DNA of 64,000 bases from an uncultured Candidatus Saccharibacteria bacterium (GCA_964599285.1 CAZREI010000002.1:9955-73954); one strand, 5' to 3'; shown: positions 3,432 to 61,774, numbered from the stretch's first letter. Made by a program: numbers and translations. The notes: generated by a model from the letters alone, not told the origin.

Positions 3432-3524
3432 AACATTATCATCGAATAACGAATTACTTTCGAATTTGCGAATCGTGTCGGACGTTATTCGTAAATTCGT
3501 ACACAATTCGTTATTCGTTGATAT

Positions 3525-3830: not shown

Positions 3831-3833
3831 GAT

Positions 3834-3917
3834 TTCGCTACGAAATACGAATCAAGTACGAATATACCAATAAGATTTAATTCGTATATTCGTAAAAAAT
3901 TCGTATTTCGTAGCCCA
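3834..3917. repeat. family C hairpin repeat (gctacgaaatacgaat ... attcgtatttcgtagc)
   Basis: Copies at 4316-4400, 36007-36090, 36325-36410. Confidence 0.85.
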
Positions 3918-3942
3918 ATTTACTTTTACCTTTATGGCTGCA

Positions 3943-4311: not shown

Positions 4312-4405
4312 AATATTGCTACGAAATACGAATCAATTACGAATATACGAACATAGGCGTCTGATTTGGTATATTCGTAAAAAATTCGTATTTCGTAGCC
4401 AGAAA

Positions 4406-4639: not shown

Positions 4640-4721
4640 AGTTTTCAGTTTAATATCCGCAATATCCGTAATATCCGATATCTGATATTATTGATATTTG
4701 CTTTGCGATATTGGTTGATAG

Positions 4722-4910: not shown

Positions 4911-4911
4911 A

Positions 4912-5015
4912 ATAATGGCAATGCAAATCTACAAATCTTATGCTAATCTACAAAATTGCTAATGTGATATTCGCATATTCGCGGCATTCGCATAAGATTC
5001 GCAGATTTGCATTAC
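4912..5015. repeat. family H repeat (gcaatgcaaatctacaaat ... atttgtagatttgcattgcc)
   Basis: Copy at 34862-34975. Confidence 0.8.
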
Positions 5016-5428
5016 CCTTCTCTCTTAATGAATTTGGTCTTGATAGGCAGTTTGATGCCGGCGCCTTTGAACGCTTCGCGCGCCACCTCTTCTTTCAATC
5101 CGTCAATTTCAAAAATAATCCTTCCTGGTTTTATGGGATACACATAGTGATGCACGCCTCCCTTGCCACCACCCAACGGCACTTCTTCTCCCTTTGAAGT
5201 AACTGGTTTGTCCGGAAAAATTCTCACCCATAGTTTTCCGCCCTTTTTCATGTATCGGATAATGTGCCTTCGCGCCGCTTCCAACTGGCGAGCGGTAATC
5301 CACTTGGTGCCCATGGCTTTTAACCCAAAACTGCCGAAATTCAATTCCGTAGCGCGCGTCTCCACTCCTCGGCTGACACCTCGGTGCCACTTGCGGTGCT
5401 TTACTTTTTTGGGCATTAATAAACTCAT
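5012..5428 (-). CDS. rplP: 50S ribosomal protein L16
   Basis: MPKKVKHRKWHRG...; uL16. Confidence 0.9.
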   Translation of the reverse strand: MSLLMPKKVKHRKWHRGVSRGVETRATELNFGSFGLKAMGTKWITARQLEAARRHIIRYMKKGGKLWVRIFPDKPVTSKGEEVPLGGGKGGVHHYVYPIKPGRIIFEIDGLKEEVAREAFKGAGIKLPIKTKFIKREG

Positions 5429-5429
5429 A

Positions 5430-5540
5430 TTCTTTGATATATATTCGCCTCTGGCGAATGATACTTAGAGATATTTGCGCGCCTTGCGCGCGATATTTTT
5501 CTAGTATCTATTAATATCCGTAATATCCATTAATATCTAT
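5430..5540. repeat. family D repeat (gatatttgcgcgccttgcgcgcgatattt...atatccgtaatatc)
   Basis: Near-identical copy at 17910-18020; partial at 4655-4700. Confidence 0.8.
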
Positions 5541-6214: not shown

Positions 6215-6327
6215 GTTTTTGAATCTTGAATCTCGTATCTTGTATCTTGAACGGAATAATGAATTTGGAATACCGCGCATTCACTATTCCGTATTCGATT
6301 CCAGCTTCTAGATACAAGATTCTAGAT

Positions 6328-6756: not shown

Positions 6757-6836
6757 TGCTACATTTAACATGTGACAATTGACATTTGACCGCCGGTTCG
6801 TTTTTTGGTCAATTGTCAAATGTCAATGGTCAATTG

Positions 6837-7172
6837 TTACTTCTCTGGTTTTTTGACGTCCACTGCTACTTTTGCCGCCTGCGACGCTTCAGCCTGCTGT
6901 TCTATTCCTTTTTGCATCTTGCCGCCGTGTCTTGAAAATTTGGTTGACGCGGAAAATTCCCCTAGCTTGTGCCCTACCATATCTTCAGAAACATACACCG
7001 GCACAAACTCCTTGCCATTGTGGACTCCAAAAGTAACCCCAACCATTTCCGGTGAAATCGTGGAAGAACGCGCCCAGGTTTTTATGATAGTCTTTTCGTC
7101 TTTGCGCAGCCTCAACACTTTTTCCAGCAATCGCTGATCTACGAAAGGACCTTTTCTTAAGCTTCTCGACAT
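6837..7172 (-). CDS. rpsS: 30S ribosomal protein S19 with C-terminal extension
   Basis: [12 protein letters not shown]...GHKLGEF; extra about 25 aa tail. Confidence 0.9.
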
Positions 7173-7179
7173 AATTTTT

Positions 7180-7307
7180 GGAGTAATCACGAATATACAA
7201 ATACGTTCAAATATACAAATGTTACAAATATACGAATACGAGCGACGTGATTTGTATATTAGTAAAATTTGTATATTATTTTAGATTTGTATATTCGTGA
7301 TTACTCC
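7180..7307. repeat. family B hairpin element (ggagtaatcacgaatatacaaat ... atttgtatattcgtgattactcc)
   Basis: Perfect about 23-bp terminal inverted repeats. Other copies at 8150-8289, 10696-10809, 18432-18582, 25112-25314, 27386-27501, 49287-49461. Confidence 0.9.
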
Positions 7308-7312
7308 TTATC

Positions 7313-8143
7313 TTATTTTTTCTTACGCCTTTGTATGATGAATTTGTTGGTCCACTTTTTTCGGTTTCTGGTTTTCACTCCTAATGCCGGTAATCCCCAC
7401 GGAGTTTTTGGATGCTTCAATCCAATGGGTTGGCGACCTTCGCCTCCTCCATGCGGATGGTCAACCGGATTCATGGCTGATCCACGCACATGCGGCCGTC
7501 TTCCTTTCAATCGTGACTTACCGGCTTTTCCAACCGTGTAAAATCGATTTTCCGGATTAGACACCATGCCCACCGAAGCAAAACATTCTCCACTGACTTT
7601 GCGAACTTCGGTTGAAGGCATTTTCAAATTAGTGTAGCCGTGTTCTTGCGCCAATACCTGGGCCGCCGATCCTGCCGATCTTACCAAAATGCCGCCTTTA
7701 CCCGGTTCCAATTCAATGTTGTACACGTTCGTTCCCACCGGAATATTTTTTAACTTCATTCGATTACCCGGAGTTTGCGGCGCGTTTTCTGAAAATACTA
7801 TACTATCGCCCACTTTCAACCCTTGCGGCGCAATAATGTATTGCCTTACTTTATCCGAATATTCAATTAATGCAATAAAGCCGGTTCGGTTTGGGTCATA
7901 TTCCAAAGCAATCACATTTGCGGGCGCGTCCATTTTGGTTTGACTAAACTCAATAATCCGATACAGTTTTTTTACGCCGCCGCCTTTGTGTCGCACCGTA
8001 ATTCTGCCCGAAGCCTTTGATCTGCCAACCGAGCGCCTGACGTATTTTAAAAGCGATTTTTCCGCCCGTTTTTTTGTAAGCAAAGAAAAATCAATTCCGG
8101 TCATGCCCCGTCTGGATGGAGTTGTAGGTTTGTAAATCTTCAT
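7313..8143 (-). CDS. rplB: 50S ribosomal protein L2
   Basis: MKIYKPTTPSRRGMTG...GGEGRQPIG; start 8143 (upstream MRVFVYSCIRDYSKI is repeat-derived). Confidence 0.9.
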   Translation of the reverse strand: MKIYKPTTPSRRGMTGIDFSLLTKKRAEKSLLKYVRRSVGRSKASGRITVRHKGGGVKKLYRIIEFSQTKMDAPANVIALEYDPNRTGFIALIEYSDKVRQYIIAPQGLKVGDSIVFSENAPQTPGNRMKLKNIPVGTNVYNIELEPGKGGILVRSAGSAAQVLAQEHGYTNLKMPSTEVRKVSGECFASVGMVSNPENRFYTVGKAGKSRLKGRRPHVRGSAMNPVDHPHGGGEGRQPIGLKHPKTPWGLPALGVKTRNRKKWTNKFIIQRRKKK

Positions 8144-8288
8144 AATTTTGGAGTAATCACGAATACACGAATATACGAATACTCTCAAATATACAAATCT
8201 TACAAATATACGAATGTGCGCGAATGTCGTAATTTGTATATTGGTAAAATTTGTATATTATTTTAGATTTGTATATTCGTGATTACTC

Positions 8289-8723
8289 CTATATGATCTC
8301 TATTTTTTGCCCTTCCTTGACTGTAACTACGGCTTTGGTAAATCCCTTTCTAAACCCTTCAGTTTTTCCCAGCCTTCTTTTTTTGTGCGGAATTGTTATT
8401 ATGTTGACGCCCAGCACGTCTACTCCGTAAATTCCTTCCACTGATTTTTTTATTTCTAATTTATTGGAGTTGCGGTAAACCTTAAATGTATATTTATTCT
8501 TTTCTGCCAAATTGGTTGCCTTTTCAGAAATATGCGGTTCTTTAATTACACTATAAGAAAACCCCTTTGCTTTCTTTGGTCCTGTGGTCCGAACCACGGG
8601 ACTGGGTTTTTGCGGTTCGGGTTTTGCTGATTTTGTAGTCAAAACTTTTTCCGATTTTTTATCAGCTGGTTTTTTCGCCTTTTCTACTTCCTTTTTTCTT
8701 TTTAAAAAATCAAATAAACTCAT
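8289..8723 (-). CDS. rplW: 50S ribosomal protein L23 with Lys/Pro-rich N-terminal extension
   Basis: C-terminal ISEKATNLAEKNKYTFKV uL23 core; start uncertain. Confidence 0.75.
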   Translation of the reverse strand: MSLFDFLKRKKEVEKAKKPADKKSEKVLTTKSAKPEPQKPSPVVRTTGPKKAKGFSYSVIKEPHISEKATNLAEKNKYTFKVYRNSNKLEIKKSVEGIYGVDVLGVNIITIPHKKRRLGKTEGFRKGFTKAVVTVKEGQKIEII

Positions 8724-8787
8724 GGAACATGGAACATGGAACATGGAACAAAACTACGACGTCTTGTTATGTGTTCCATGTTATGTG

Positions 8788-9879: not shown

Positions 9880-10056
9880 GCTTAAATTTTCAAATTACTC
9901 TGGATTGCCACGTCGCTTCGCTCCTCGCAATGACGACGTTTGGTTTCCGCGTTTTTCCGCGAGACGCTGGGCGTCCCTGCCCCGCTCAGCGTGGGCGTAA
10001 ATTTCCCCGGCCTCGACTCGCTGTCAAGGCGAGGCGGGCGCGTTATTCCGCGATTG

Positions 10057-10689
10057 CTAACCCCTAATCTCCAGCAACGTTCCCCGGTGTCCCGGGACGG
10101 CTCCTTTCAATGCTATCACATTATTTTCTGCATCCACTTTTGCGACTATCAAATTTTTTACCGTTACTCTTTCAAATCCCATTCTTCCTGGCATTTTTCT
10201 TCCTTTGATGGTGTGCTGGGGAAATCGCTGGCCAATGGATCCTACGGTTCTTGCTTCGTGCTTTGCTCCGTGCGTAGCATTTCTGCCATGAAACCCATGC
10301 CGCTTTACTGCTCCTTGAAATCCTTTTCCTTTTGAAGTTCCGATAACCGTCACCTTGTCGCCCTCGGCAAATACTGCCACATTAATTTGGTCGCCCACTT
10401 TCACATTCTCATCGTTCCCCCTAAATTCCTTAATGTATTTATATTCTTTCCCTTTCATTGATTTACCAATTTTGCTTTTCTTCAATATTTTTTCCAAACC
10501 AATTTGAATAGCATCATAACCATCTTTGCCGTCTTTTTCTTTCTTGTCCGCCGTAGCTTTAGCGAGGGAGGAGGTTTTTTTCTGCAAAACCACGCAAGGC
10601 CCCGCTTCAACCAAAGTCACCGGAGTGATATTTCCTTTCGCGTCGAATAACTGGGACATGCCGATTTTTTTGCCGAGGATAAACTTCAT
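10057..10689 (-). CDS. rplC: 50S ribosomal protein L3
   Basis: MKFILGKKIGMSQ...; uL3; ORF-track MYIRDYSKF is repeat-derived. Confidence 0.9.
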   Translation of the reverse strand: MKFILGKKIGMSQLFDAKGNITPVTLVEAGPCVVLQKKTSSLAKATADKKEKDGKDGYDAIQIGLEKILKKSKIGKSMKGKEYKYIKEFRGNDENVKVGDQINVAVFAEGDKVTVIGTSKGKGFQGAVKRHGFHGRNATHGAKHEARTVGSIGQRFPQHTIKGRKMPGRMGFERVTVKNLIVAKVDAENNVIALKGAVPGHRGTLLEIRG

Positions 10690-10952
10690 GAATTTGGAGT
10701 AATCACGAATATACAAATACGATCAAATATACAAATATACTAATACGAACGAGTGTTACGATTTGTATATTCGTATATTATTTTAGATTCGTATATTCGT
10801 GATTACTCCTTTTATAAACAAATACCGGGCACTTCGCCCGGCCAATTCAAAACTATTGAATTTTTTGCGGACTTATCTCTTGATAATCAAGAGTAGTATC
10901 TCGTCTTTTTCAACGATTAATCAGTGTACTATATCTTAATAGAAATATCAAC

Positions 10953-11049: not shown

Positions 11050-11430
11050 CTATATCTTAATAGATATATCTACTCCCGATGGTAAATTCAAGTCTCTTAG
11101 CGCTTCAATGATCTGTTCGTTCGGGCTTAGAATATCAATGATTCTTTTGTGGATTCTCATTTCAAATTGCTCGCGGGCGTTCTTGTGAACAAAGGTTGAT
11201 CGGTTGACCGTATACTTTAAAATTTCCGTTGGCAGTGGCACCGGTCCCACCACTTCAACGCCATGCCGATTGGCAATGTCAATAATCTGGCGCACCGAAT
11301 TGTCTATGATTTTGTGGTCATAGGCTTTCAGCTTGATGCGCAGTTTAGGCAAAGAAGCCACCGTTTGAACTGGCGCTTCTTTGGTTTCAACTTTTTTCCT
11401 GGTAACAGTTTTTTTTGCGACTACCATTAT
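11050..11430 (-). CDS. rpsJ: 30S ribosomal protein S10 with N-terminal extension
   Basis: [29 protein letters not shown] uS10 core. Confidence 0.85.
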
Positions 11431-11494
11431 GTTGGATTTTCTGCGTGATTCCGCGTAAATTTCCGCGTTTTTCCGCGCCAAAAATCATCAAATA

Positions 11495-12861: not shown

Positions 12862-13149
12862 CTACTGAATTTCCAGCGCTTCCTCAAGCTTTTTCACTCT
12901 CGGCCGAAGATCAGAAATACCTTCTAACTTCACTTCAACATTCTTAAGCCTTTCGTCTATTTTTTCAACCTTAACTTCAACGTTTTTCAATCTATCTTCT
13001 ACTTTTTCAAGCTGAACCTTTGTTGCTACGTTATCAAAACTATCTTTTACCATTTTAGCGGTAGGAAAAGTCTCTTCCATTACTTTGGTAGTAGGAAAAA
13101 TCTCTTTCATCGCCTCAATTATTTTTTTTACATCTTTCTCGTCTATCAT
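12862..13149 (-). CDS. hypothetical coiled-coil protein
   Basis: Repetitive VEDRLKNVEVKVEKIDERLKNVEVKLE heptads; no SD. Confidence 0.4.
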   Translation of the reverse strand: MIDEKDVKKIIEAMKEIFPTTKVMEETFPTAKMVKDSFDNVATKVQLEKVEDRLKNVEVKVEKIDERLKNVEVKLEGISDLRPRVKKLEEALEIQ

Positions 13150-13153
13150 ATTT

Positions 13154-13336
13154 TTATATTTCTTTTTTCTCTTCTTTAATAATGTTATGATTTTTTAGAA
13201 ATTCCACAAGTGGCACATTACAATCTTTGCAAAATTCGTAGTGATCGTAGGCAAACCGCACGGTAGTCCAACCACTTCTATACTTTTCTTCAATTTCTTT
13301 TTTACAAATATCACATTTTGTAACCATCATATGCAT
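13154..13336 (-). CDS. hypothetical zinc-ribbon protein
   Basis: CDIC...CKDC pairs. Confidence 0.35.
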   Translation of the reverse strand: MHMMVTKCDICKKEIEEKYRSGWTTVRFAYDHYEFCKDCNVPLVEFLKNHNIIKEEKKEI

Positions 13337-13450
13337 CCATTATAGTCGGCCAGAGAAGTCTGTCAAATTTGACGGAAAAACTTTTTGGTGCTAAATTATC
13401 AATAGCTGTTTGACATATCGACTTTTCCTCTTTTCACGGGAGAACAGTTC

Positions 13451-13810
13451 ATGACTCAGGAAAATCGTAGGGTTATTAGAGATACGGTTTTCGGCCTTCT
13501 GCGACAACGCCTAGAAAAGCGAGAAAAGATCATTGCGAAATCATGGGAATATTTGAAAGTGAAAGGTATTCCCAGAGAAGAGTTTGAAGAATGGTGGCGA
13601 GAAAGGTTTCCCTCTTGCCCAAAATGCGGATTCGGTTGCAGTTCAACTTTTATGCATTGTCCTGAATGCGGTACCCGATTGCCCCTTCCCAAAACCATTG
13701 AACAGCTCGACGACAGAGAAGAGGAAATGGTTGGATACAGCCACATTGCTCACCACCTCCAAAAAGCAGACGGTTTAAACTTCTGCGTAGATTGTGGCAA
13801 AAAACTTTGA
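13451..13810 (+). CDS. hypothetical zinc-ribbon protein (119 aa), opposite strand between tuf and fusA
   Basis: CPKCG...CPECG and CVDCG; GGGAGA SD; terminator 13822-13852. Confidence 0.45.
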   Translation: MTQENRRVIRDTVFGLLRQRLEKREKIIAKSWEYLKVKGIPREEFEEWWRERFPSCPKCGFGCSSTFMHCPECGTRLPLPKTIEQLDDREEEMVGYSHIAHHLQKADGLNFCVDCGKKL

Positions 13811-13852: not shown

Positions 13853-13944
13853 TGTAAGACTCTGGATTGCCACGTCTCCGACTACGGTCGGGACTCGCAA
13901 TGACGACGTTATTCGTAATTCGATAAAATTCGTAATTCGTAGGA

Positions 13945-16323: not shown

Positions 16324-16356
16324 GGCGCCAACCCAAAAAGTTGGCGCATTTTTTTA
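16324..16356 (+). terminator. intrinsic terminator
   Basis: ggcgccaacccaaaaagttggcgc plus T7. Confidence 0.6.
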
Positions 16357-16614
16357 CCTGTAAATATCCTTCCGGTGACCAATTTCTACGAATACTGCTT
16401 CATCTTTACTTTCAAAACAATAAATAACTCTATACTCGCTTGTTAATCTTAAAGAATAAAATCCATTAAATTTTCCAGAAAGTTTTTTAACATGAAGGCG
16501 GGTGTCATGTTGGTCAGTTCTAAAAATATCTGTTTGCCGCAGGAGTAATTCTTTTATTTTCAGGGGCAAATTACTTGCATCTTTTAAAAAAGATTTTCTT
16601 AAAACAACTTTCAT
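16354..16614 (-). CDS. type II toxin, RelE/ParE family
   Basis: C-terminal YRVIYCFESKDEAVFVEIGHRKDIY matches RelE/ParE; 86 aa. Confidence 0.8.
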   Translation of the reverse strand: MKVVLRKSFLKDASNLPLKIKELLLRQTDIFRTDQHDTRLHVKKLSGKFNGFYSLRLTSEYRVIYCFESKDEAVFVEIGHRKDIYR

Positions 16615-16958
16615 TTTGAAATAAGCTTTAGGAAATCTCTTTTATTGGTATAAACAACCGACCCACGCCTATCTTTTGCATTCTTTAAAACCCTTTTTAC
16701 AAAATTGGGATTATACTCACCCTCACGGTCAACACCACCACTTAAACGATACTTTTTCTTAACCTGTCCCATTGAATAAGTCCGTCCTGTTTTAACATCT
16801 TCTTGGCCCAACCTGATTTGCTTTATGGCCCAATTACTTAAAGCTTCTTTTTTACCTACTTTTTTGGTTTTTCTAGCGCCAGCTAAAACCAACCTTTTAA
16901 CAAAAGCTAAATCTTTTTCCAGTCTATTAATTTTTTTCTCTAAAAGTCTGTTGGTCAT
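16611..16958 (-). CDS. putative cognate antitoxin (unassigned family)
   Basis: Immediately upstream of toxin with 4-bp ATGA overlap; inferred from genomic position. Confidence 0.45.
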   Translation of the reverse strand: MTNRLLEKKINRLEKDLAFVKRLVLAGARKTKKVGKKEALSNWAIKQIRLGQEDVKTGRTYSMGQVKKKYRLSGGVDREGEYNPNFVKRVLKNAKDRRGSVVYTNKRDFLKLISK

Positions 16959-17030
16959 GGACTTATTTTAGTGTATTCTTTGTGAAAGTCAATTTTGAGC
17001 AATAATTCCAAAGTTACGCATTTTTTCTAT

Positions 17031-17060
17031 TGGACATTGTCTTGACATAAATATATTAAA
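17031..17060 (+). promoter_or_regulatory. sigma70-like promoter TTGACA-17-TATGAT
   Basis: Upstream of 17123 ORF. Confidence 0.35.
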
Positions 17061-17122
17061 AATATATGATTGGGACGTGTAATACTTCTCTCGCCTTTTG
17101 CTCTTACAAGAAGAGAAATCTT

Positions 17123-17380
17123 ATGGCGGAACGAATCTTTCCGAAAGGCGTGCGGACAAGGGGTAACGTAATCAAATTTCGAACGGAGGATGGAAAGGAA
17201 ATTTCCGAGTACGTCGAATTCCGAAAGAAGGAAGATGACGAAACGCTCATTGTCTTTTTAAGGGACACAAATCGTTATCTCACCCACAATCCCTTGAAGG
17301 ACGGAGACAAGTGGACATATCATTACGCACATCACGAGGTTCACAGAGAACTAGGTAGGGTGACAATCGTCACCGATTAG
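17123..17380 (+). CDS. small hypothetical protein (85 aa) opposite strand between fusA and rpsG
   Basis: MAERIFPKG...; own terminator 17402-17432. Confidence 0.4.
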   Translation: MAERIFPKGVRTRGNVIKFRTEDGKEISEYVEFRKKEDDETLIVFLRDTNRYLTHNPLKDGDKWTYHYAHHEVHRELGRVTIVTD

Positions 17381-17906: not shown

Positions 17907-18014
17907 AATCCTTTGATATTTATTCGCCTTGGCGAATGATACTTAGAGATATTTGCGCGCCTCGCGCGCGATATTTTTCTAGTATCTATTAATATCCGTA
18001 ATATCTATTAATAT

Positions 18015-18425
18015 CTACTTTTTCAGTTTCGTTCCATACCTCGATCTTCCCTGCTTTCGGTTTTCTACTCCTGTCGTATCCAAAATGCCACGGACAATGT
18101 GGTATCTGACTCCGGGCAAGTCCTTTACCCTGCCGCCTCTGATTAATACCACGCTGTGTTCTTGCAAGTTGTGGCCTTCGCCAGGAATGTAGGCTGTCAC
18201 CTCCATACCGTTGGACAGTTTTACCCTGGCAACTTTACGCAAAGCCGAGTTTGGTTTTCTTGGCGTTTGGGTAAATACCTTAATGCACACGCCGCGCTTA
18301 AAGGGCGATGGGTAGTGTGATGGCCGGTTTTGCAAAGCATTAAAACCAAACTGCAAAGCCACGCCCTTCTTTTTGGCTTTAATGGATCTTCTGGGTTTTT
18401 TAATGAGTTGATGAATCGTAGGCAT
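18015..18425 (-). CDS. rpsL: 30S ribosomal protein S12
   Basis: [13 protein letters not shown]...[11 protein letters not shown]...; start 18425 (MYIRDYSKK is repeat-derived). Confidence 0.92.
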
Positions 18426-18479
18426 TTTCTTGGAGTAGTCACGAATATACAAATACGATCAAATATACAAATATACAAA

Positions 18480-18520
18480 TGTGAAGATTGCTTCGGCGCT
18501 CCTCGCAATGACGGACGGAA
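18480..18520. repeat. family I motif (ctggattgccacg...ctcgcaatgacg) nested inside family B copy
   Basis: Also at 9895-9960, 13858-13912, 25170-25262, 31860-31945, 49356-49405; related ctggattcccgattgcgcgggaatgaca at 29060-29090. Confidence 0.8.
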
Positions 18521-18659
18521 CGGATTTGTATATTGGTAAAATTTGTATATTATTTTAGATTTGTATATTAGTGATTACTCCTTCTAAAAAAGAATAAGCG
18601 CACTGCGCTCAATACCTGCAAGTCTATCAAAAAAAATAATGAGAGTCAATACTCGCGGG

Positions 18660-19329: not shown

Positions 19330-19470
19330 ATGTAATTATTCTAATTGCTCTAATTGACCTAATTATTCTAAGGAATGTCTAATTTCTAAAACGAACGGTT
19401 TGCATATTTTGAAGTTGGGATTTATTTAGGTTAATTAGAATAATTAGGTTAATTAGAATAATTTCAAAAC
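19330..19470. repeat. family M repeat (ttagaataattag words)
   Basis: Copy at 29950-30120. Confidence 0.7.
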
Positions 19471-24464: not shown

Positions 24465-25103
24465 TTAAATATTGCTAAACCTTTTTTCGGCCTCTGCCCA
24501 GTTGACCACGTTCCACCAGGCTTTTAGGTAATCCGGGCGGACGTTTTTGTATTGCAAATAGTAGGCGTGCTCCCAGACGTCGTTGCCCATAATCGGCGTA
24601 TGACCATCGGACATTGGGTTGTCCTGGTTAGCCGTAGACATAACTTCCAGCTTGCCATCTTTATTTTTTACCAACCACACCCAGCCGCTTCCAAAACGCT
24701 TGGCTCCGGCGTCTTCAAATTTAGTTTTAAAATCTTCAAAACTGCCAAAAGTTTTTTTAATTTCTTCGGCTAACTTGCCGGTTGGTTCAGGGAGCCACCC
24801 CGCTGAGCGGGGTTCGGGTCCGCTAAGCGGACCCATAATCTCCCAAAACATGGAATGATTCACATGTCCGCCACCGTTGTTCTTAACAGCGGTGCGAATG
24901 TCTTCCGGAACAGCATTTAAGTCCATCAACAGTTCTTCTGCGCTTTTTTCAAAAAGTTCCGGATGTTTTTCCAAAGCATCATTTACATTTTTAACATAAG
25001 CCGCGTGATGCTTGTCATGGTGGAGCATCATAATTTCTTGTGAAATATAAGGCTCCAAAGCATTGTAGGTATAGGGCAAGTCCGGCAAAGCATGTTTTTT
25101 CAT
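24465..25103 (-). CDS. sodA: Fe/Mn superoxide dismutase
   Basis: [16 protein letters not shown]...HHDKHH...[13 protein letters not shown]. Confidence 0.95.
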
Positions 25104-25318
25104 AGTTTTAAGGAGTAATCACGAATATACAAATTTAGAACAATATACAAATGTTACAAATATACGAATGTGCTGGATTGCCACGCTGGCAAGATGCGTG
25201 GCGTAATTGGCCGCAGCCGATTCGCCCCATCTCCGGCTCGCAATGACGACGACGGGATTTGTATATTTGTAAGATTTGTATATTTGATCGTATTGGTATA
25301 TTCGTGATTACTCCAGCA

Positions 25319-27385: not shown

Positions 27386-27503
27386 AAGGAGTGGTCACGA
27401 ATATACAAATACGATCAAATATACAAATATACGAATGCGGACGTTTGTCGTGATTTGTATATTAGTATATTAACGCAGATTCGTATATTCGTGATTACTC
27501 CAA

Positions 27504-28810: not shown

Positions 28811-29102
28811 AGTATCTGATACCAATATACTAATCCGCCGATGACGGTCATACCAATTATACTAATGGTGAACGTTTTATTAGTATCATTGGAATGTAAA
28901 TTCGTATATTAGTATCACATTATTTCAAATAAAAACGACCTTTCATTTATTGTATCACGCGATACAAAAACAAAGGTCAAAAAGTTATCCACTGAAAAAA
29001 ATTGAGCGTTTTGTCATCCCAGGCCGCGACCCGGGATCCAGAGTATCGGTGCAGTTTCTGGATTCCCGATTGCGCGGGAATGACAGTTTCAAGGAGTTAC
29101 TT

Positions 29103-29722: not shown

Positions 29723-29962
29723 TTATTCTACAATACAGCGGACTTCGTTGCCCTGTTTTACCTCCAAAAATCCTGATGCGACTTCAAAAAAGTGTTCTTT
29801 GTTCTGGGAATCGGCCACCCGCATCACGCCCGCCGTCAACACGCCGATATATGGTTCGTGATTATCCAGCACCGTAATCTCTCCCACCATAGTTTTGCAG
29901 TTTAACAAGCTGGCATCGCCGGCAAAGAGAATTTTCTTCAGTGAGTAAATAGAAAGCTTCAC
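29723..29962 (-). CDS. atpC: ATP synthase epsilon chain, N-terminal beta-sandwich only
   Basis: KILFAGDASLLNCKTMVGEITVLDNHEPYIGVL; GTG start proposed; lacks C-terminal helices. Confidence 0.7.
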   Translation of the reverse strand: MKLSIYSLKKILFAGDASLLNCKTMVGEITVLDNHEPYIGVLTAGVMRVADSQNKEHFFEVASGFLEVKQGNEVRCIVE

Positions 29963-30115
29963 TAAAATTATTCTAATTATTCTAATTAACCTAATTGACC
30001 TAATCAAATCCCAATGACAAAATGTCGAATGCCTAAAACTGTACTTAGACATTCATGTATTTCGTCGTTATTTAGAATAATTAGAACAATTAGAATAATT
30101 AGAATAATTTAGAAA

Positions 30116-31841
<1,726 letters not shown>

Positions 31842-31946
31842 AATTTTAAAAATTAATTTCTGGATTGCCACATCGCTTCGCTCCTCGCAATGACGACGTT
31901 TGGTTTCCGCGTTTTTCCGCGTAAATTTCCGCGTGGTTCCGCGATA

Positions 31947-34862: not shown

Positions 34863-34967
34863 AATGGTAATGCAAATCTACGAATTTAATGCGAATGCCG
34901 CGAATATGCAAATTCGCGGATTAGCAATTTTGTAGATTAGCATGAGATTTGTAGATTTGCATTGCCC

Positions 34968-35330
34968 TTAAAAAATACTGTCCAGTTTATTTTTTAACGA
35001 AAAGTCCAATTGCCTATTCCCATCAACCACGATTTTCACCCCAGCTATCAATGCGGGATTTATTTTTTCTTCAACCATATCACCCTTTTTAATAAAAGAC
35101 TTGGCCGCGTCCTTGGCGTTTATTTTTCGCGCGGTTTCCAGGGCAATCTTTTTATTTCCTGTTTTTTGTAAAAGCAGTTTTTGGGCCAAAGCTATTATTT
35201 CCCGAAACTTTTTCATATCACCATTTCGTTCCAAAAGCTTTAAAAAGTTATTTACCACTTTTTTGTCTTCAGTGCTTGTATCCAAATCTACCAGGGCTTT
35301 GGCGTATGCTTTCGCTTTGTACTTACTCAT
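34968..35330 (-). CDS. atpH: ATP synthase delta subunit (short)
   Basis: OSCP-like; operon position. Confidence 0.7.
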   Translation of the reverse strand: MSKYKAKAYAKALVDLDTSTEDKKVVNNFLKLLERNGDMKKFREIIALAQKLLLQKTGNKKIALETARKINAKDAAKSFIKKGDMVEEKINPALIAGVKIVVDGNRQLDFSLKNKLDSIF

Positions 35331-35989: not shown

Positions 35990-36086
35990 TTGCTACTCTT
36001 TAAGGCTACGAAATACGAATTTTTTACGAATATACGAAATTAAAACGCTCGCATTCGTATATTCGTATGCAATTCGTATTTCGTAG

Positions 36087-36332
<246 letters not shown>

Positions 36333-36423
36333 TTACGAATGTAGTACGAATATACGAAAGTCAGACGCCCACATTCGTATATTCGTAAAAAATTCGTATT
36401 TCGTAGCCTAATTAATATTAAAC

Positions 36424-43482: not shown

Positions 43483-43977
43483 ATGTCTCATGCTATATCT
43501 AAGCAAAAAGTCTACGAAATGCTGATTGAGGAGATTAACCAAGTTATTGATAGGCTCACGAAGGTATATGAGACCACAAGTGATGCTGCGGTCAAGGCGC
43601 AGGGACGTATGGAATCACGCTACGACACGACCAAGGAAGAGCAAAGTAAGCTCGCAGATGCTATTGGTATGCAAGTTTATGAGCATAGGAAGCGTCTTAA
43701 GTCGCTTCAGTATTTCTGGTCTATAACAACGAAAAACGTAGGGACAGTTATTGGTCCCGGGTCGTTAGTTATAGTTGAAGCTGATAATCAAGAAGAAGTA
43801 TACTTTATTATTGAATCAGGGAGCGGTTACGTTTTTGAACTAGAAGGTTGCGAAATTGTTTGTATCTCTGTTCAGACGCCGCTCGCTCAATCACTAACTG
43901 GGCACAAACAAGGTGAAGTAGTGGAAGTGATAGTTGGGGGGGAAAAACGCTTACTAACTATCAAGTCCCTGCAGTAA
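43483..43977 (+). CDS. GreA/GreB-family-like protein
   Basis: C-terminal FKBP-like domain ISVQTPLAQSLTGHKQGEVVEVIVGGEKRLLTIKSL resembles GreA C-terminus; GGAGG SD. Confidence 0.55.
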   Translation: MSHAISKQKVYEMLIEEINQVIDRLTKVYETTSDAAVKAQGRMESRYDTTKEEQSKLADAIGMQVYEHRKRLKSLQYFWSITTKNVGTVIGPGSLVIVEADNQEEVYFIIESGSGYVFELEGCEIVCISVQTPLAQSLTGHKQGEVVEVIVGGEKRLLTIKSLQ

Positions 43978-43997
43978 TCCAACTGAAAGGATTTGAG

Positions 43998-44564
43998 ATG
44001 AAACTGGAACATGTCTTTGTTAGTATTGATGGAGTAGATGGTGTTGGCAAGACCACGGTAGCAAAGCTTCTTGCTGCTGATGGATCTTTCCAATATCACA
44101 AGTCTCCAACCAGCCCTTTTGCGCAACTGCGAAAAGAAGTTGACGCTCACGCAAATCCGATTGAACGCTACTGCTTCTACCGTATAGCAACGCAGTTTGA
44201 TTCAGCGCAGATAAGCAAGTTGCTGGAAACAAACTCAGTTGTCTGTGATCGCTACATTGCGTCAACGGCGGCATATCACATCGCAATGGACGCTCGTATT
44301 CGAGTTATCCATAGTGATGCGGAACTCCTTAAGCCACATTTTGCGTTTCTTCTAGGTGCTCGTTCGGAGATTCGTGATAAGCGAATACTTGAACGCGCAA
44401 AAGTGTTAAGCGATGTAAAACTTGAGAGAGATAGTATGCTCCTCGATCGCGTCGCTGAAATTTTTATGTCGTTCGGTCTTACCTACATTGACACCAGCGA
44501 CATCCCAGCTGAAGAAGTCGTACAAGTAATAAAGCGCATCGTTGCGCAAGGAGGAATACCATGA
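43998..44564 (+). CDS. thymidylate-kinase-like P-loop nucleotide kinase
   Basis: SIDGVDGVGKTT P-loop; DRYIAS; AAGGA SD. Confidence 0.65.
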   Translation: MKLEHVFVSIDGVDGVGKTTVAKLLAADGSFQYHKSPTSPFAQLRKEVDAHANPIERYCFYRIATQFDSAQISKLLETNSVVCDRYIASTAAYHIAMDARIRVIHSDAELLKPHFAFLLGARSEIRDKRILERAKVLSDVKLERDSMLLDRVAEIFMSFGLTYIDTSDIPAEEVVQVIKRIVAQGGIP

Positions 44565-45574
44565 GCTTGAAGCCGCTTTCGTACGCTCACATCATGGCCA
44601 TTGCAGATGCGTGGCGTGATATGGGTGGTGTTCCTGAAGTAGAAATCGGTGCCCTTGAACCGCTTTTGTGGCGTGACGAGCAATATCGCATTCACGATGT
44701 TGTGAGTGCGCTGACTGAACGCGGATTCAATGTTTCGATGACCACCAATGGACAATTACTGGATATCTTCGCCAAGAATTTGAGTCGTGCAGGTCTCTCA
44801 CTCATACGAACTAGCTGGCACTCGACTGACCCACTTATGTTTCGGGAAATATCTGGAGGTTATGGTGATTACAATCGGTTCATGCGTGGGATAATACTTG
44901 CGCTTGAATCGGGTATAAAAATTGCCTTCAATCGCGTACTCCACAAAGGGTACACTGATGATATTCCCGAACAATTGTCGTTCATTGAGCGGTACAAAAG
45001 CCGACTCAAACTCTACACACTTCTATGGACGCCGCAGGGTGCATCTACTCACGAGTTGTTCTATCAAGATTGGCATCCTGTTGTGCGAGAATCAGTTTTG
45101 CCACGCACACTCAAGATAGTCAGAGTCAGAAAACAACTTGGTCGTGGACGTCTTCGGTTTCATCTTGTTGGAGGTGGATCGGTTGAAGTAAAGTTAGGTG
45201 ATAAATTGGACCGTAGTATGCACCCCTGTACATCATGCTCGTTTAAAAACGAGTGTGAAGAGGGGTTTGGCGACTATGTTCGAATTGACCCGCGTCTGCA
45301 CCTTTACTTCTGCTATATGCGCAGGGATATCGGATTCCAAATACCGGAATACTTTGGGAGACCAGAGGTATTGAAGCAGAAGTTACAAGAAGCAATTGGG
45401 ACAATAGATGTTGAGAATCTTCTTGTAACGGCTCCGCTACGCCTGACCGTAACGCCATTCTGCAATTTTAATTGCAGAGCGCCTGGCGCAAAACAGGGAT
45501 GGTGCATGGAGGAGCCAGGTGAGTACACATATCCAAAAATTCGTTTGTCTCTCCTGGGAGAAAACAAACCTTAA
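44561..45574 (+). CDS. MoaA-like radical-SAM-fold protein with cluster-loop-like motif at C-terminus
   Basis: EPLL...SMTTNGQLL...SWHSTDPLMF...IKIAFNRVLHKGYTDD...CTSC..C follows MoaA. No N-terminal CX3CX2C. C-terminal LRLTVTPFCNFNCRAPGAKQGWC resembles the MoaA N-terminal loop. Confidence 0.55.
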   Translation: MSLKPLSYAHIMAIADAWRDMGGVPEVEIGALEPLLWRDEQYRIHDVVSALTERGFNVSMTTNGQLLDIFAKNLSRAGLSLIRTSWHSTDPLMFREISGGYGDYNRFMRGIILALESGIKIAFNRVLHKGYTDDIPEQLSFIERYKSRLKLYTLLWTPQGASTHELFYQDWHPVVRESVLPRTLKIVRVRKQLGRGRLRFHLVGGGSVEVKLGDKLDRSMHPCTSCSFKNECEEGFGDYVRIDPRLHLYFCYMRRDIGFQIPEYFGRPEVLKQKLQEAIGTIDVENLLVTAPLRLTVTPFCNFNCRAPGAKQGWCMEEPGEYTYPKIRLSLLGENKP

Positions 45575-48989: not shown

Positions 48990-49289
48990 TTATCTTACAA
49001 GCAGCAGCAATGCCGCTCCGCCGCTTTCTATGTGGTCTCCTACGACTTTTCCTATGCAACGGTTTTCATAGTCAAAAACCTGGCCGTCGCCGTGGACCGT
49101 GCCGATGTGGCTTCCGGCTTTGTACACGTACCCGTTGGCTCCAAAATTTCCGACCACGCTTCCCGAAGCATTGTGCACTTCACTATCGCTTGAAACATAT
49201 CCAATAATAACGTTTGCCGTGTTGCGGACCCTCCCATCTTCTCCAATGGTCGCCATTTTTTGCCCGGATATATCTAAGATGTCTGACAT
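48990..49289 (-). CDS. beta-rich hypothetical (bactofilin-like repeats)
   Basis: Start at MSDILD; G-x-V repeats. Confidence 0.35.
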   Translation of the reverse strand: MSDILDISGQKMATIGEDGRVRNTANVIIGYVSSDSEVHNASGSVVGNFGANGYVYKAGSHIGTVHGDGQVFDYENRCIGKVVGDHIESGGAALLLLVR

Positions 49290-49454
49290 AGTTTTTGGAG
49301 TAATCACGAATATACCAATACGATCAAATATACAAATGTTACAAATATACGAATGTGCTGGATTGCCACGTCGCTTCGCTCCTCGCAATGACGGACAGAA
49401 CGGATTTGTATATTGGTAAAATTTGTATATTGTTCTAAATTTGTATATTCGTGA

Positions 49455-50117
49455 TTACTCCCTAATTAGTTGGTATTCTTTGTTAAAAATCTTTTTGGAA
49501 ATAATAAAAATACTATAGGTGATAAAGGGCGCGGCAAAGACATCTATGGAATAATGCATGTGGGCCAAAATCATGGTGACGCCAAAAATGCCGGCGGCGA
49601 CAAAAAAGAAGTTTCTCCAAAGGGCTTCTTTCCAAAAAATCAGGCCAAATAAAAATGGCGCGCCCACGTGTCCCGAAAAGAAAAAATCATTTTTGGCATT
49701 GTATAAAAAATCGTAAATACTGAAACCAACGCCCTGGGCGTTTAAGGTGATTTGATGAAGGCTGACTCCCAAGTGCGTCAAGCTGATAAAAAAGGACCTG
49801 ACAATAATAAAAAATGCCAAAGATTTAATAGAAAAAAGCAGGTAGCGGGGCTGGATGGCGCAGAGCATCATAACGACAAAAGACAGTATCAGCGCGCCTT
49901 GCACAATGAAAAAATCTAAATTAATGGTGGGCAGGTTGTCCAATAATAAATCCCCCACGTAGGTTACCTGCGCGTGATGGTCAACATAATTGTAGGCAAA
50001 ATGCTGCACGAGCAAAGCGGCCGCCAATAGCGCCACGGCACCCAAGAACAACAAAAACGTATCCTTTTTCCAAAAATGCGTATGGCGCAAATATATTTTT
50101 TCTATGTAGCTATTCAT
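49455..50117 (-). CDS. PAP2-family membrane phosphatase
   Basis: SGH and HMHYSIDV motifs. Confidence 0.7.
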   Translation of the reverse strand: MNSYIEKIYLRHTHFWKKDTFLLFLGAVALLAAALLVQHFAYNYVDHHAQVTYVGDLLLDNLPTINLDFFIVQGALILSFVVMMLCAIQPRYLLFSIKSLAFFIIVRSFFISLTHLGVSLHQITLNAQGVGFSIYDFLYNAKNDFFFSGHVGAPFLFGLIFWKEALWRNFFFVAAGIFGVTMILAHMHYSIDVFAAPFITYSIFIISKKIFNKEYQLIRE

Positions 50118-59107: not shown

Positions 59108-59518
59108 CTACCTGATGCTTGAGTTGCTCACGCTACTCAAACTGCTCTCCTCACGAACGTTGTTGATAGCACCGTTGCTATGAACATCGTGAGGCGTGTC
59201 GTTGACTGATCGAAACGGTGTCAGTTTGATGACCACGCCGCTTACGATTGCGGCGATGGCCACGATCACGAACACCGAGACGAAAAGGTCAATGACAACC
59301 CACTGCGAAACAACCACGGGCTGGTAAATCACGACGAGCGTGATCGCCACCCAGTGGCTGGTGCAGTAAGAGCATGACACAAGCTCACCGAGCCAGGTGT
59401 TTTTCTTGGCACTCCATTCCCTTGCGGAAGCGAAGAGCCGAGATTTGGAGGTGGTCACCGAAATCGCCGCTGTCGCCAGAGCGAGAACGATAACCTGATA
59501 CAAGCCGTTCAGATCCAT
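59108..59518 (-). CDS. DUF1360-like membrane protein
   Basis: SCSYCTSHWVA; AAAGGAGG SD; high GC. Confidence 0.5.
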   Translation of the reverse strand: MDLNGLYQVIVLALATAAISVTTSKSRLFASAREWSAKKNTWLGELVSCSYCTSHWVAITLVVIYQPVVVSQWVVIDLFVSVFVIVAIAAIVSGVVIKLTPFRSVNDTPHDVHSNGAINNVREESSLSSVSNSSIR

Positions 59519-59533
59519 TGCGCTACCTCCTTT

Positions 59534-59737
59534 CTAGCAGGTACATCCGCCCTGGGACTTGGACTGTTCGCGACGCATTTGTTCGTTGATGCTGTCGGCC
59601 AGCTTCAGGGCTTTGTCCACCCCGGCCAACACATCGTCAACCTCCGGAACCTGGTCGGAAATGTCAGTCGTCTCAAGAGACGAACTGCCACCTGGACCCG
59701 GCCCTTTGGTTTTCTTGCGGAACCGATCTTGGAGCAT
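59534..59737 (-). CDS. Pup-like small protein ending ...QGGCTC
   Basis: Gly-rich N-terminus; EVDDVLAGVD...KSQGG resembles Pup DEIDDVLEEN...QKGGQ; AAGGAGA SD; directly after ARC stop. Confidence 0.5.
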   Translation of the reverse strand: MLQDRFRKKTKGPGPGGSSSLETTDISDQVPEVDDVLAGVDKALKLADSINEQMRREQSKSQGGCTC

Positions 59738-59749
59738 GGATGTTTCTCC

Positions 59750-61487
59750 TTACGCCTTGGCCTGGCGAAGCTTCTGAATGCCCACGACTTCCTCGCGGAA
59801 ATCATGGACGAAATCAGAGAGTTCGTCGGTGTGGTTGAGGTCACGGTTTTGTTGTTCCACCAGATCCACTGCCACCACCAGATCGTCCTTGCGCATCCCT
59901 TCCGGCTTTTTCTTGGAAAGGTCGCGTTGCAGAGCAATCGAAGTGGCTTGGTCGATGATACTCACGATCATCCCACCGTTCACGATGTGACCGAGGGTGA
60001 AATCGCAGACACCATCTTTCTTCTTGACTTGGTAGAGCACCCGACGAGACGAGAACACCTCGTCACTGCCGAGCTTTGCCAGCTCCTCGCGCGTGTAACC
60101 GTTGTTAAGCGGCACTCGCTTGAGGTTGAGCTGGAAAATGTCCACCGCGCCTTGCGGAGTCGGACGCCCAATCTTGATCTTGCGATCAATGCGCCCGTCA
60201 CGAACCACAGCCGGGTCGAGGATGTCGGAGCGGTTCGTGGCCAGAATGACCAGAGCGCCCGAATCTTCGAGACCGTCCATTTCCGTCAGGAACATGGGAA
60301 CGATCGTGCGTTCCACATCCGAGCTGATGCCCGAACCGCGCTTGGACAAGATCGCGTCGGCTTCGTCGATGAACACCACCGCCGGATAGCCATGCGTTTC
60401 CTTGTGCTTGCGCGCCCGCTGGAAGATTTGACGAACCGTTGCTTCGGCCATACCCACGAAACGATCGAGAATCTCGGGACCCTTGATGTAGATGAATCCC
60501 GCAGACTTCGAGCCGCCGTTGTAGATCTTGGCCAGAGCTGTCGCCGTCGCCTTTCCCAGCATGGTCTTGCCGCATCCCGGAGGGCCATAGAGGAGAATTC
60601 CCTTTACTGGCTTCTTGCCGTAGAACCGGAAAATATCCGGGTTCCTGTGTGGAAGCTCCACGGCTTCGATCATCTGTTTCTTGGCTTCCGCCAAACCACC
60701 GACATCGTTCCAAGTGACGTTCGTTTCAGCCGAAAAGCTGAAGCGTTCGTCGTCTTTCCCGAGGTTGCGGATGATGACGCTGGCCGTTCCGTCAAGCACG
60801 ACGCGGTCGCCCTTTTCGAGCGCCTTGCCGAGCTTGCCGTTGAAAACGACCCGAACCGAAGACTGGTAGTCCACTTCCGAGAACATTTCGTCGATCACGC
60901 GTCGCAGGTAGCCGATGTCACCGCCCAGTTGCGTTGCCGCAACGTCGACGATTTGCATCGTCTCCATAACGATCGTGACCGTGTCGCCAGGGTTGACCTG
61001 TTTGTCCTTCGGCAGAAGGACTTCGAGGAACTTCCCTTCGACGGCGATGAGGGCAGTGTTGCCATAACTAGCAGATGCCTTCTTAGTGTACCATCGTTCG
61101 ACATCTGCACAAAAATCGAGAAACACCTTTCCGTCGTGATCAGTGAAAATCTTGGAGCCCTGAAAACCCGCCACCACATGCTTCTTGGCCTTCATGACAT
61201 GGGAGGTAAGACCCACATCGGGTTTAATCTCAAGCTCATCACCCACAGCGTAACCCCGCAACGTCCTGACGATATTATCCACTTTTTCAGTGCTGCCGTT
61301 CACCATAACAATGGACGAAGGGATTTTTACCTCCCTCTTCACTTCCACCGCCACCACCGTCGCATACGCGAAGGGGGGGGGTAGTGAGCTGTTCGAGCAT
61401 CTCCTTCTGTTCGAGGAGCTTGGCTTTCGCCTGCTCGAGAGCGTCACGGAGCTTCTGGACCTGTTCTTGGACTTCACGTTCGTTCAT
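59750..61487 (-). CDS. proteasome-associated AAA ATPase (ARC/Mpa-like), frameshifted in a C9 run
   Basis: GILLYGPPGCGKT...FIDEADA...ILATNR...RxGRID; N-terminal coiled coil MNEREVQEQVQKLRDALEQAK encoded in the other frame upstream of G9/C9 at 61373-61381. Confidence 0.85.
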
Positions 61488-61774
61488 GACTGACCTCCTG
61501 ACCTGACGTTCGCGGTTTGATCTTCAACGGGATTTTGCAGGCATACGTCAACTGCTCGCAAAACTTTCGCCCCCGCTGGATCGTCAATCGTTCCGATGGC
61601 AAAGTGAACATTCAGTCCCCTTGCCAACTCCAGTCCTCCCCGGACCGAAGCTACGATTAGTTTTTGTCCGTCATGGGAACTGGTCGGATCCTTCACGCGC
61701 ACCTTCCAGACTGTTCGTCCTTTCGATGGCGTGTCGAACCCGACGACGAACCCATTGGTTCTTTTCGGGTTCAT
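61484..61774 (-). CDS. hypothetical protein (96 aa)
   Basis: ATGA overlap with ARC start; no family recognised. Confidence 0.4.
   Translation of the reverse strand: MNPKRTNGFVVGFDTPSKGRTVWKVRVKDPTSSHDGQKLIVASVRGGLELARGLNVHFAIGTIDDPAGAKVLRAVDVCLQNPVEDQTANVRSGGQS

Follow-up and report, generated by a model that had tools for sequence, protein, structure and literature searches.

Short palindromic repeats next to start codons in a Parcubacterial genome: probable miniature derivatives of a hairpin-flanked nuclease cassette

The DNA analysed here, a stretch of 64,000 nt assigned to an uncultured Candidatus Saccharibacteria bacterium (GCA_964599285.1, CAZREI010000002.1:9955-73954) and below called the window, contains an S10/spc/str ribosomal-protein cluster at 1-19 kb and seven copies of a short palindromic repeat, termed family B, which lie directly upstream of start codons. 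The window genes are 75-82% identical to those on contigs of metagenome-assembled genomes (MAGs) of Candidatus Staskawiczbacteria, a group of the Parcubacteria in the candidate phyla radiation (CPR), and these contigs bear the same element. The window stems from a Staskawiczbacteria-like Parcubacterium, a bacterium with a tiny genome. Scanning the window with the 23-mer GGAGTAATCACGAATATACAAAT at up to three mismatches gave 14 matches that form seven inverted pairs, where shuffled sequences lead one to expect none. The pairs delimit elements of 114-203 nt (n = 7) with inverted ends of 23 bp. The original prediction, which had described seven copies with a perfect 23-bp stem, was correct in the number of copies and their pairing, with two starts displaced (27386 should read 27388 and 49287 should read 49297); the stem is real, and it is perfect (23/23) in the first copy, the remaining copies having one or two mismatches.

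All seven copies are described on the minus strand, which is the sense strand of the neighbouring genes and on which each copy reads 5'-GGAG...CTCC-3'. Copy 1 (7180-7307, 128 nt) lies between the rplB stop codon and rpsS and is separated from the rpsS ATG at 7172 by the 7-nt linker AAAAATT. Copy 2 (8150-8289, 140 nt) is followed by the 6-nt linker AAAATT and the rplB ATG at 8143, and overlaps the upstream stop codon in that its own first G completes the TAG of rplW. At the 3' end of a 360-nt spacer, copy 3 (10696-10809, 114 nt) precedes the rplC ATG at 10689 with the 6-nt linker AAATTC. The rpsL leader holds copy 4 (18432-18581, 150 nt; 6-nt linker, ATG at 18425), with a promoter-like TTGACT-N17-TAGACT upstream of it. 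Copy 5 (25112-25314, 203 nt) has flipped arms and an 8-nt linker to the sodA ATG at 25103; copy 6 (27388-27501, 114 nt) carries TT on both flanks and leaves only 2 nt before the tgt ATG at 27385; and copy 7 (49297-49461, 165 nt) leaves 7 nt to the start codon, an ATG at 49289, of a gene for a beta-flower-domain protein. The distances from element end to ATG are thus 7, 6, 6, 6, 8, 2 and 7 nt. The placement just before minus-strand start codons that had been proposed holds for all seven copies and, as described below, extends to other genomes, with a range of 2-8 nt instead of 5-8 nt. A scan of copies 1 and 2 for sigma-70 promoters and intrinsic terminators found nothing within these elements, and an outward promoter or terminator role for family B is accordingly unsupported. 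The window gave no Rfam match at gathering thresholds and no hit in a tRNA scan. No viral contig that was scanned matched the terminal inverted repeat (TIR), and a look-up of identical rpsS sequences, aimed at near-identical strains with empty sites, returned no record.

The placement is not a peculiarity of the window. A scan with TATATTCGTGAYYACTCC, one genome per species, gave 72 loci (designated by L numbers below), mostly in four MAGs of Staskawiczbacteria and in further bins of Patescibacteria; isolated matches in unrelated phyla look like chance. With the related genomes included, more than 40 copies beyond those in the window were found, short copies range from 114 to 219 nt, and the genes that follow them are varied, with at least 30 different ones. 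Among 46 complete copies from outside the window, 36 have an ATG that opens a long open reading frame (ORF) 1-14 nt past one end, compared to 11% for random intergenic positions in the window (p about 5e-26), and for 22 of the 46 the distance is 6-7 nt (null 1.6%, p about 1e-27), some of the counted copies being orthologous to each other. Random placement in relation to start codons, which would have spoken against the initial proposal, is therefore not what these genomes contain. Exceptions are two copies between convergent stop codons, one after rpsG by a terminator, and one upstream of a promoter.

Orthologous sites are occupied variably, which is a sign of mobility: they hold family B, a hairpin of another family, or nothing. 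The region that precedes rpsS contains family B in the window, a CGAAT-type hairpin in L020 and a TTGACA-type one in L042, with hairpins of still other types in L004 and L040. The tgt site carries family B in the window and in L049, a CTACGAAAT-type hairpin in L021, and none in L024. Upstream of sodA, the family B copy of the window corresponds to empty sites in L021 and L003. Family B is shared at the rplC site with L002 and at the rpsL site with L038.

The anatomy of the arms was compared in 43 copies from the window and related genomes (L002-L072), oriented by the downstream gene. Positions 1-23 of both arms are almost invariant; they are followed by a variable 7-nt spacer. Positions 31-41 hold a second conserved motif, the 11-nt AATATACRAAT, and a third is often present. 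An arm can thus be written as a 12-nt terminal motif GGAGTAATCACG plus two to three copies of the 11-nt motif, with a period of 18 nt and spacers of 7 nt. The conserved motifs of the two arms pair with each other, and the unpaired spacers, which tell the arms apart (CTAAAAT-like in one, ACGATCA-like in the other), make 7x7 internal loops. At TIR position 7 the ATG-distal arm has A, and 22 of the 43 ATG-proximal arms have G; in ORF-bearing copies, described below, the arrangement is reversed.

Copy 1 has a predicted folding energy of -57.9 kcal/mol, with z = -10 relative to shuffled sequences. In none of the seven window copies is the A-rich linker part of the element stem, and the stretch from the linker through AUG to +12 has a mean unpaired probability of 0.51-0.79 across them; for copies 1 and 2, the upstream flank is predicted to pair with the AUG and the final part of the linker. 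The conservation does not appear to act on this RNA. In 12 aligned copies, the 28 conserved pairs contain no compensatory change, and the covariation term is about zero (+0.1). Of 43 copies, 29 fold more stably on the antisense than on the sense strand (p = 0.017; 133 versus 101 G.U pairs), and position 7 produces, in half of the copies, an A.C mismatch when read as mRNA and a G.U pair on the antisense strand. When selection on sense-strand RNA structure was tested for, the sign was thus the opposite one. Together, the missing compensatory changes and the antisense advantage give no sign that sense structure is upheld beyond the DNA palindrome, and the preservation of sub-repeats next to varying spacers indicates conservation at the DNA level rather than the RNA level. 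As a sequence pattern, conserved motifs with free spacers resemble a set of protein-binding sites more than a structure maintained by covariation.

The genes of this lineage are nearly devoid of Shine-Dalgarno (SD) signals. With gene starts called by a simple first-ATG rule, GGAG, GAGG or AGGA is almost absent upstream of the start among the 93 window ORFs. Genes without a hairpin show instead T at position -7, A from -6 through -3 (53-65%) and a pyrimidine at -2 and -1, that is, T-AAAA-YY-ATG. These data fit the reported loss of the anti-SD motif in a subgroup of the Parcubacteria (PMC9297842). GGAG or AGGAG does occur upstream of starts in two blocks, 43483-45574 and 59108-61774; the block at 59-62 kb has a raised G+C content (0.49-0.54) and may be foreign, and that at 43-46 kb (0.35-0.45) is close to the window average. 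The hint that the GGAG-containing arm of family B matters as an SD sequence is not supported: the element carries GGAG at its distal 5' end, with 110-200 nt between it and the ATG, and has CUCC at the end next to the ATG. Since the genome is nearly without SD motifs and GGAG is also distal, the latter is unlikely to be a ribosome-binding site. Insertion 3' of an SD-like GGAG was considered as well and was dropped when the genome was found to be SD-free.

The start context shows how insertion may have occurred. Twenty copies, at 17 distinct genes, have a distance of 6 nt to the ATG. All 20 have A at both -6 and -5, compared to 63-65% in hairpin-free genes, and 14 of 20 have AA on both flanks (null 0.186 from the frequency of AA in the same flanks, p = 7e-7). 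Identity of the 2-nt flanks over all copies amounts to 21 against 15.6 expected (p = 0.007). The flanks fit, in a statistical sense, a 2-bp duplication of the AA at -6/-5 of T-AAAA-YY-ATG; such a duplication would give the 6-nt linker (AAAAYY, most commonly AAAATT) and the frequent TAA or AAA just upstream of the element. Spacing depends on orientation, with 6-7 nt in 22 of 29 copies in one orientation versus 4 of 11 flipped copies, a pattern that an asymmetric DNA target would yield. An empty and a filled site can be compared upstream of prgI: in L075 the preceding gene ends in ...GAATAATG with overlapping stop and start codons (TAATG), and in L073 a cassette sits exactly there, its GGAGTAA providing the last codon and the stop of the upstream gene and its other end abutting the new start. 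The reciprocal case, at a prgI/traC-like site, is filled in L075 and consists of a 15-nt spacer in L073. Two empty orthologous sites, an anecdotal number, lack AA at -6/-5.

In related genomes, family B-type ends also enclose a co-oriented ORF of about 126 amino acids, giving elements of 468-570 nt. Such long copies (coordinates without strand) are found at L003 3854-4321, L024 3279-3746 and L052 6710-7188, whose ORFs match TIGR04256 ('GxxExxY protein') with E values of 6e-27 to 2e-31 and scores of 94-109 bits (cut-off 35) over model positions 1-115 of 116; further copies with an enclosed ORF are at L015 3836-4405 and in L016. The L003 ORF also matches PF13366 (PDDEXK_3, 7e-27). The element L069 1755-2050 (296 nt), in which just the first ~25 codons of the ORF are left, is a decay intermediate. 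A structure model of the GxxExxY protein (pLDDT 89) resembles Cas4, lambda exonuclease, the tRNA-splicing endonuclease and Hjc, so that by its modelled fold the protein appears to be a generic PD-(D/E)XK nuclease. There are 184 homologs, and those with a named source are all from CPR bacteria except for one bin labelled Pacearchaeota. In four other CPR lineages, the GxxExxY gene is likewise located between operon genes, co-oriented with these and flanked by inverted arms of sub-repeats. The arms are B-type in L073, GAGTAATCGCGAATAATGCGAAT in L077, TTCGCGAATAATGCGAAT in L075 and CTACAAAT...GTAG in L079; in three of the four lineages the following ATG comes 0-6 nt after the arms, and in L073 the called ATG falls inside the 3' TIR. 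The earlier account of family B, sound as to the element itself, had missed both these longer nuclease-bearing relatives and the sister hairpin families with the same placement.

The sister families are best seen in the ribosomal-protein cluster, nearly every spacer of which contains a hairpin composed of 7-11-nt sub-repeats in inverted arrays. These hairpins fall into at least eight sequence families, begin 0-6 nt past the upstream stop codon and end about 3-7 nt before the next ATG. By a strict criterion, a hairpin is present at 30 of the 93 window ORFs, mostly 4-8 nt from the ATG. In view of the cassettes with other arm types, several of these families would be relatives of the same kind of cassette.

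The reading that we favour, with a probability of roughly 0.7, is that family B is an ORF-less derivative, similar to a miniature transposable element with inverted repeats (MITE), of a hairpin-flanked nuclease cassette and is tolerated because it folds out of the mRNA. Its observed basis comprises the family of terminal inverted repeats, the start-proximal placement, the nuclease-bearing long copies, the turnover between relatives, the AA flanks and the SD-free genome. The full form is an element of about 470 nt in which two inverted arms surround the gene for the 126-amino-acid GxxExxY protein (TIGR04256/PF13366), and the short copies have lost this gene. The nuclease may bind the arm motifs and mobilise both long and short copies. 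The start context itself would be the target, with insertion into the AA at -6/-5 of T-A-A-A-A-Y-Y-ATG and duplication of these 2 bp, which would put the element end 6 nt from the ATG. Because SD pairing is not used, insertion would cost nothing essential upstream of -6, ribosomal-protein operons included. Compact operons have their whole stop-to-start spacer filled by the element, whose own GAGTAA often provides the upstream stop codon. Since the arms are complementary, the transcribed insert is predicted to fold as a self-contained hairpin (-40 to -85 kcal/mol) and might thereby be tolerated. By analogy with the intervening sequences of 23S rRNA, the 23-bp duplex would also be a plausible substrate of RNase III, which may cleave it.

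Several points weigh against this reading. The binding and mobilising steps of the nuclease are ones that we infer, the function of the GxxExxY family is listed as unknown (PMC3424549), and the gene is absent from the 64-kb window. The AA duplication is not seen in 6 of the 20 copies at 6 nt, is unclear in flipped copies, and is a statistical result obtained within A-rich sequence. Short copies are mostly oriented opposite to the ORF-bearing copies. The genomes used for comparison are all metagenome bins, some of whose labels (Saccharibacteria, Pacearchaeota) may be wrong. Finally, hairpins are present in about 17-20 of 24 ribosomal-protein spacers versus about one in six genes elsewhere; purely selfish insertion does not predict this enrichment, and functional readings therefore stay alive.

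Two such functional readings are compatible with a mobile origin and are not mutually exclusive with it. One is that RNase III cleavage at the hairpins is selected as punctuation, splitting polycistronic mRNA into short-leader units with 3' half-stems and so setting the stability and translation of each cistron. The near-perfect 23-bp duplex has a suitable length for this, a hairpin stands in nearly every ribosomal-protein spacer, and RNase III cuts intervening sequences of 23S rRNA that are built in the same way (PMC4990558). The RNase III gene, rnc, is present in the lineage, and in a Staskawiczbacteria MAG it even has a family B copy (L036 5159-5251) 6 nt upstream of its ATG. Selected punctuation nevertheless appears unlikely, given that strand-specific or compensatory conservation is not found and that presence/absence and family turnover among close relatives suggest dispensability. 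The other reading is that of an exapted translation element, in which a cis helix ending at about -7 fills the pocket of the SD helix on the 30S platform, or serves as a standby or insulating structure, and favours initiation on strongly expressed genes. At 6-7 nt, the offset is the same as the usual distance from SD to AUG, unrelated hairpin families have the same offset, a hairpin is retained at a site while its sequence family changes, and hairpins are enriched at ribosomal-protein and ATP-synthase genes. Furthermore, helix h26, which contacts the SD helix, is reported to be conserved in Parcubacteria without anti-SD, where its role is unknown (PMC9297842). We consider exaptation rather improbable, however, as there are no compensatory changes, the sense fold is no more stable than the antisense fold, and half of the copies have the A.C mismatch at pair 7 of the mRNA. 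About two-thirds of the genes, including tuf and fusA, are without a strong hairpin, some copies lie between convergent stop codons, and the orientation-dependent offset and the AA duplication point to targeting at the DNA level. Stated as co-option, with mobile hairpins at about -7 replacing the SD helix in SD-less Parcubacteria by docking at h26, or being cut by RNase III to give short-leader cistrons, this kind of explanation would account for near-universal hairpins in ribosomal-protein spacers despite the turnover of families, and we hold it to be similarly improbable.

Two further explanations fare worse. A single-strand element of the type known from IS200/IS605 or from the repetitive extragenic palindromic (REP/REPIN) elements that RAYT transposases mobilise, entering the template of the lagging strand on the 3' side of a short target word, would agree with the hairpin shape, with the orientation bias relative to co-oriented genes and with the conserved terminal tetranucleotide, which recalls the GTAG of REP sequences. 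It is very unlikely, as the associated gene encodes a PD-(D/E)XK nuclease and not a Y1/HUH transposase, and the element has true 23-bp TIRs and an apparent 2-bp duplication; the IS200/IS605 family is not known to have either terminal inverted repeats or target duplication. Hardly credible at all is a riboregulator in which the stem sequesters a GGAG ribosome-binding site and so controls translation. The element does start with a GGAG that pairs with CUCC, but this GGAG is distal, the AUG and linker are outside the element stem, the genome does not use SD sequences, and sister families end otherwise, for example with CTAC...GTAG.

Among described systems, family B behaves as a MITE, and in architecture it most resembles those intervening sequences of 23S rRNA that bear an ORF. 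Similar to bacterial MITEs such as Correia/NEMIS of Neisseria, ERIC and RUP (PMC3184786), family B is short and without coding capacity, has TIRs and many dispersed intergenic copies, shows a short target duplication (statistical and within A-rich sequence in our case), and would be co-transcribed with its neighbours as long hairpins. A longer relative is represented by the same-ended copies that encode the GxxExxY nuclease, for which the part of a transposase is putative. There is no sequence relation to the known MITEs, the long partner encodes a PD-(D/E)XK protein and not a known transposase, and family B differs from them in its arms of spaced 11-nt sub-repeats and its insertion at -6 in a start-context motif without SD. 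The intervening sequences of Coxiella and Leptospira (PMC4990558) have a long terminal stem (28 bp in Coxiella) and, in the loop, a small ORF directly preceded by tandem short repeats; this ORF is subject to decay and the hairpin remains, and the elements are held to be selfish and tolerated by folding out and RNase III cutting. Long family B copies likewise have complementary termini around a small ORF, of a different family: that of the intervening sequences encodes the S23p four-helix bundle and not GxxExxY. Intervening sequences reside in helix 25/45 of 23S rRNA in one or few copies per genome, with no dispersed miniature family, whereas family B is found in mRNA leaders and spacers; no rRNA is present in the window or the loci checked, and an Rfam scan of L019, L044 and L001 found neither rRNA nor any other family.

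Neisseria REP2 and the upstream inverted repeats of Borrelia (PMC3184786) are also located directly upstream of many genes and contain internal stem-loops. These repeats carry a promoter, ribosome-binding site and ATG that become fused with the gene; family B leaves 6 nt between its end and the native ATG, and the scan of copies 1 and 2 found no promoter-like site. The REP/REPIN-RAYT systems share with family B hairpin-type intergenic repeats, a conserved terminal tetranucleotide and a single small gene flanked by the same repeats. They differ in having a Y1/HUH protein and a position at the 3' end of genes; the gene between B arms belongs to PF13366/TIGR04256, the sub-repeat arms are longer, and the placement is start-proximal. 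TIGR-Tas arrays were rejected as a comparison, since family B consists of inverted hairpins at gene starts and not of tandem 36-nt arrays beside a Tas gene. Full-text literature searches on GxxExxY, on PDDEXK_3 and on palindromic repeats, MITEs and SD sequences in CPR bacteria returned no description of such an element.

Family B contains a nested second palindromic repeat, family I, as had been claimed. Its motif GTCATTGCGAG...GCAATC(CAG) occupies the loops of three of the seven window copies, on the minus strand at 18486-18512 (copy 4), 25173-25247 (a long variant, copy 5) and 49358-49392 (copy 7). It also occurs independently, with free-standing copies at 9900-9934, 13862-13904 and 31860-31894. 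All six window copies, of the form GTCATTGCGAG...GCAATCCAG, share one strand. Family I is repeatedly found in the apical loop of family B in several genomes (L014, L023, L051, L062 and L067), and this recurrent position suggests that it targets hairpin loops or spreads as a composite of B and I. The translation of related sequences into characteristic peptides was borne out as well: 29013-29048 encodes VIPGRDPGSRVS and 29053-29085 encodes SFWIPDCAGMT. Within 29013-29085, a related repeat is present as two units in inverted arrangement, GTCATCCC...GGGATCCAGA plus TCTGGATTCCC...GGGAATGAC, which have the family I termini GTCAT...ATCCAG; it corresponds to the widespread 'WIPxCAGMT' repeat.

The hairpins of other families, at least eight in number, occupy spacers of the ribosomal-protein and ATP-synthase operons and mostly end 3-7 nt before an ATG; their sub-repeats are CGAATAA, CTACGAAAT, TTGACA, GATATTA, TTGAATCTTG, TGCAAATCT, CATGGAACA and CGCGGAA. 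As inverted sub-repeat arrays, given without strand, they are located at 625-722, 1068-1172, 2483-2560, 2790-2870 and 3432-3524; at 3831-3942, 4312-4405, 4640-4721, 4911-5011 and 5417-5536; at 6215-6327, 6757-6836, 8724-8787, 11428-11494 and 17907-18014; and at 34863-34970, 36005-36087 and 36316-36416. Another sub-repeat family forms hairpins of 9-nt tandem units, TTAGAATAA and TTAGGTTAA, at 19331-19466, upstream of a small ORF (19471), and at 29965-30110, upstream of the ORF 29723-30052. The str operon holds small extra genes at 12862-13810 and 16354-17380. Zinc-ribbon-like small ORFs lie on both strands between tuf and fusA, and between fusA and rpsG an ORF for a RelE/HigB-like toxin (16354-16614, below Pfam cut-offs) overlaps by 4 nt its upstream ORF of 115 amino acids (16611-16958). 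With respect to public data, the sole contig with an identical sodA (L081 1-36) breaks at the element, and mechanical ORF calls run into elements via GTG or TTG codons (6837-7190 and 7313-8188). Such repeats thus fragment assemblies and mislead start-codon calling.

With this interpretation, the large GxxExxY/PDDEXK_3 family would gain a concrete role in palindromic cassettes and their miniatures, that of cargo and probably of mobilising enzyme. The element would target the translation-start context itself at single-nucleotide resolution, which may be possible because the host does without Shine-Dalgarno pairing. It would account for the inflated, repeat-filled spacers in the otherwise compact operons of CPR bacteria, spacers that break assemblies and lead gene callers to false starts inside elements, and it would tie hairpins in mRNA leaders to the long-unexplained ORF-bearing intervening sequences of 23S rRNA.
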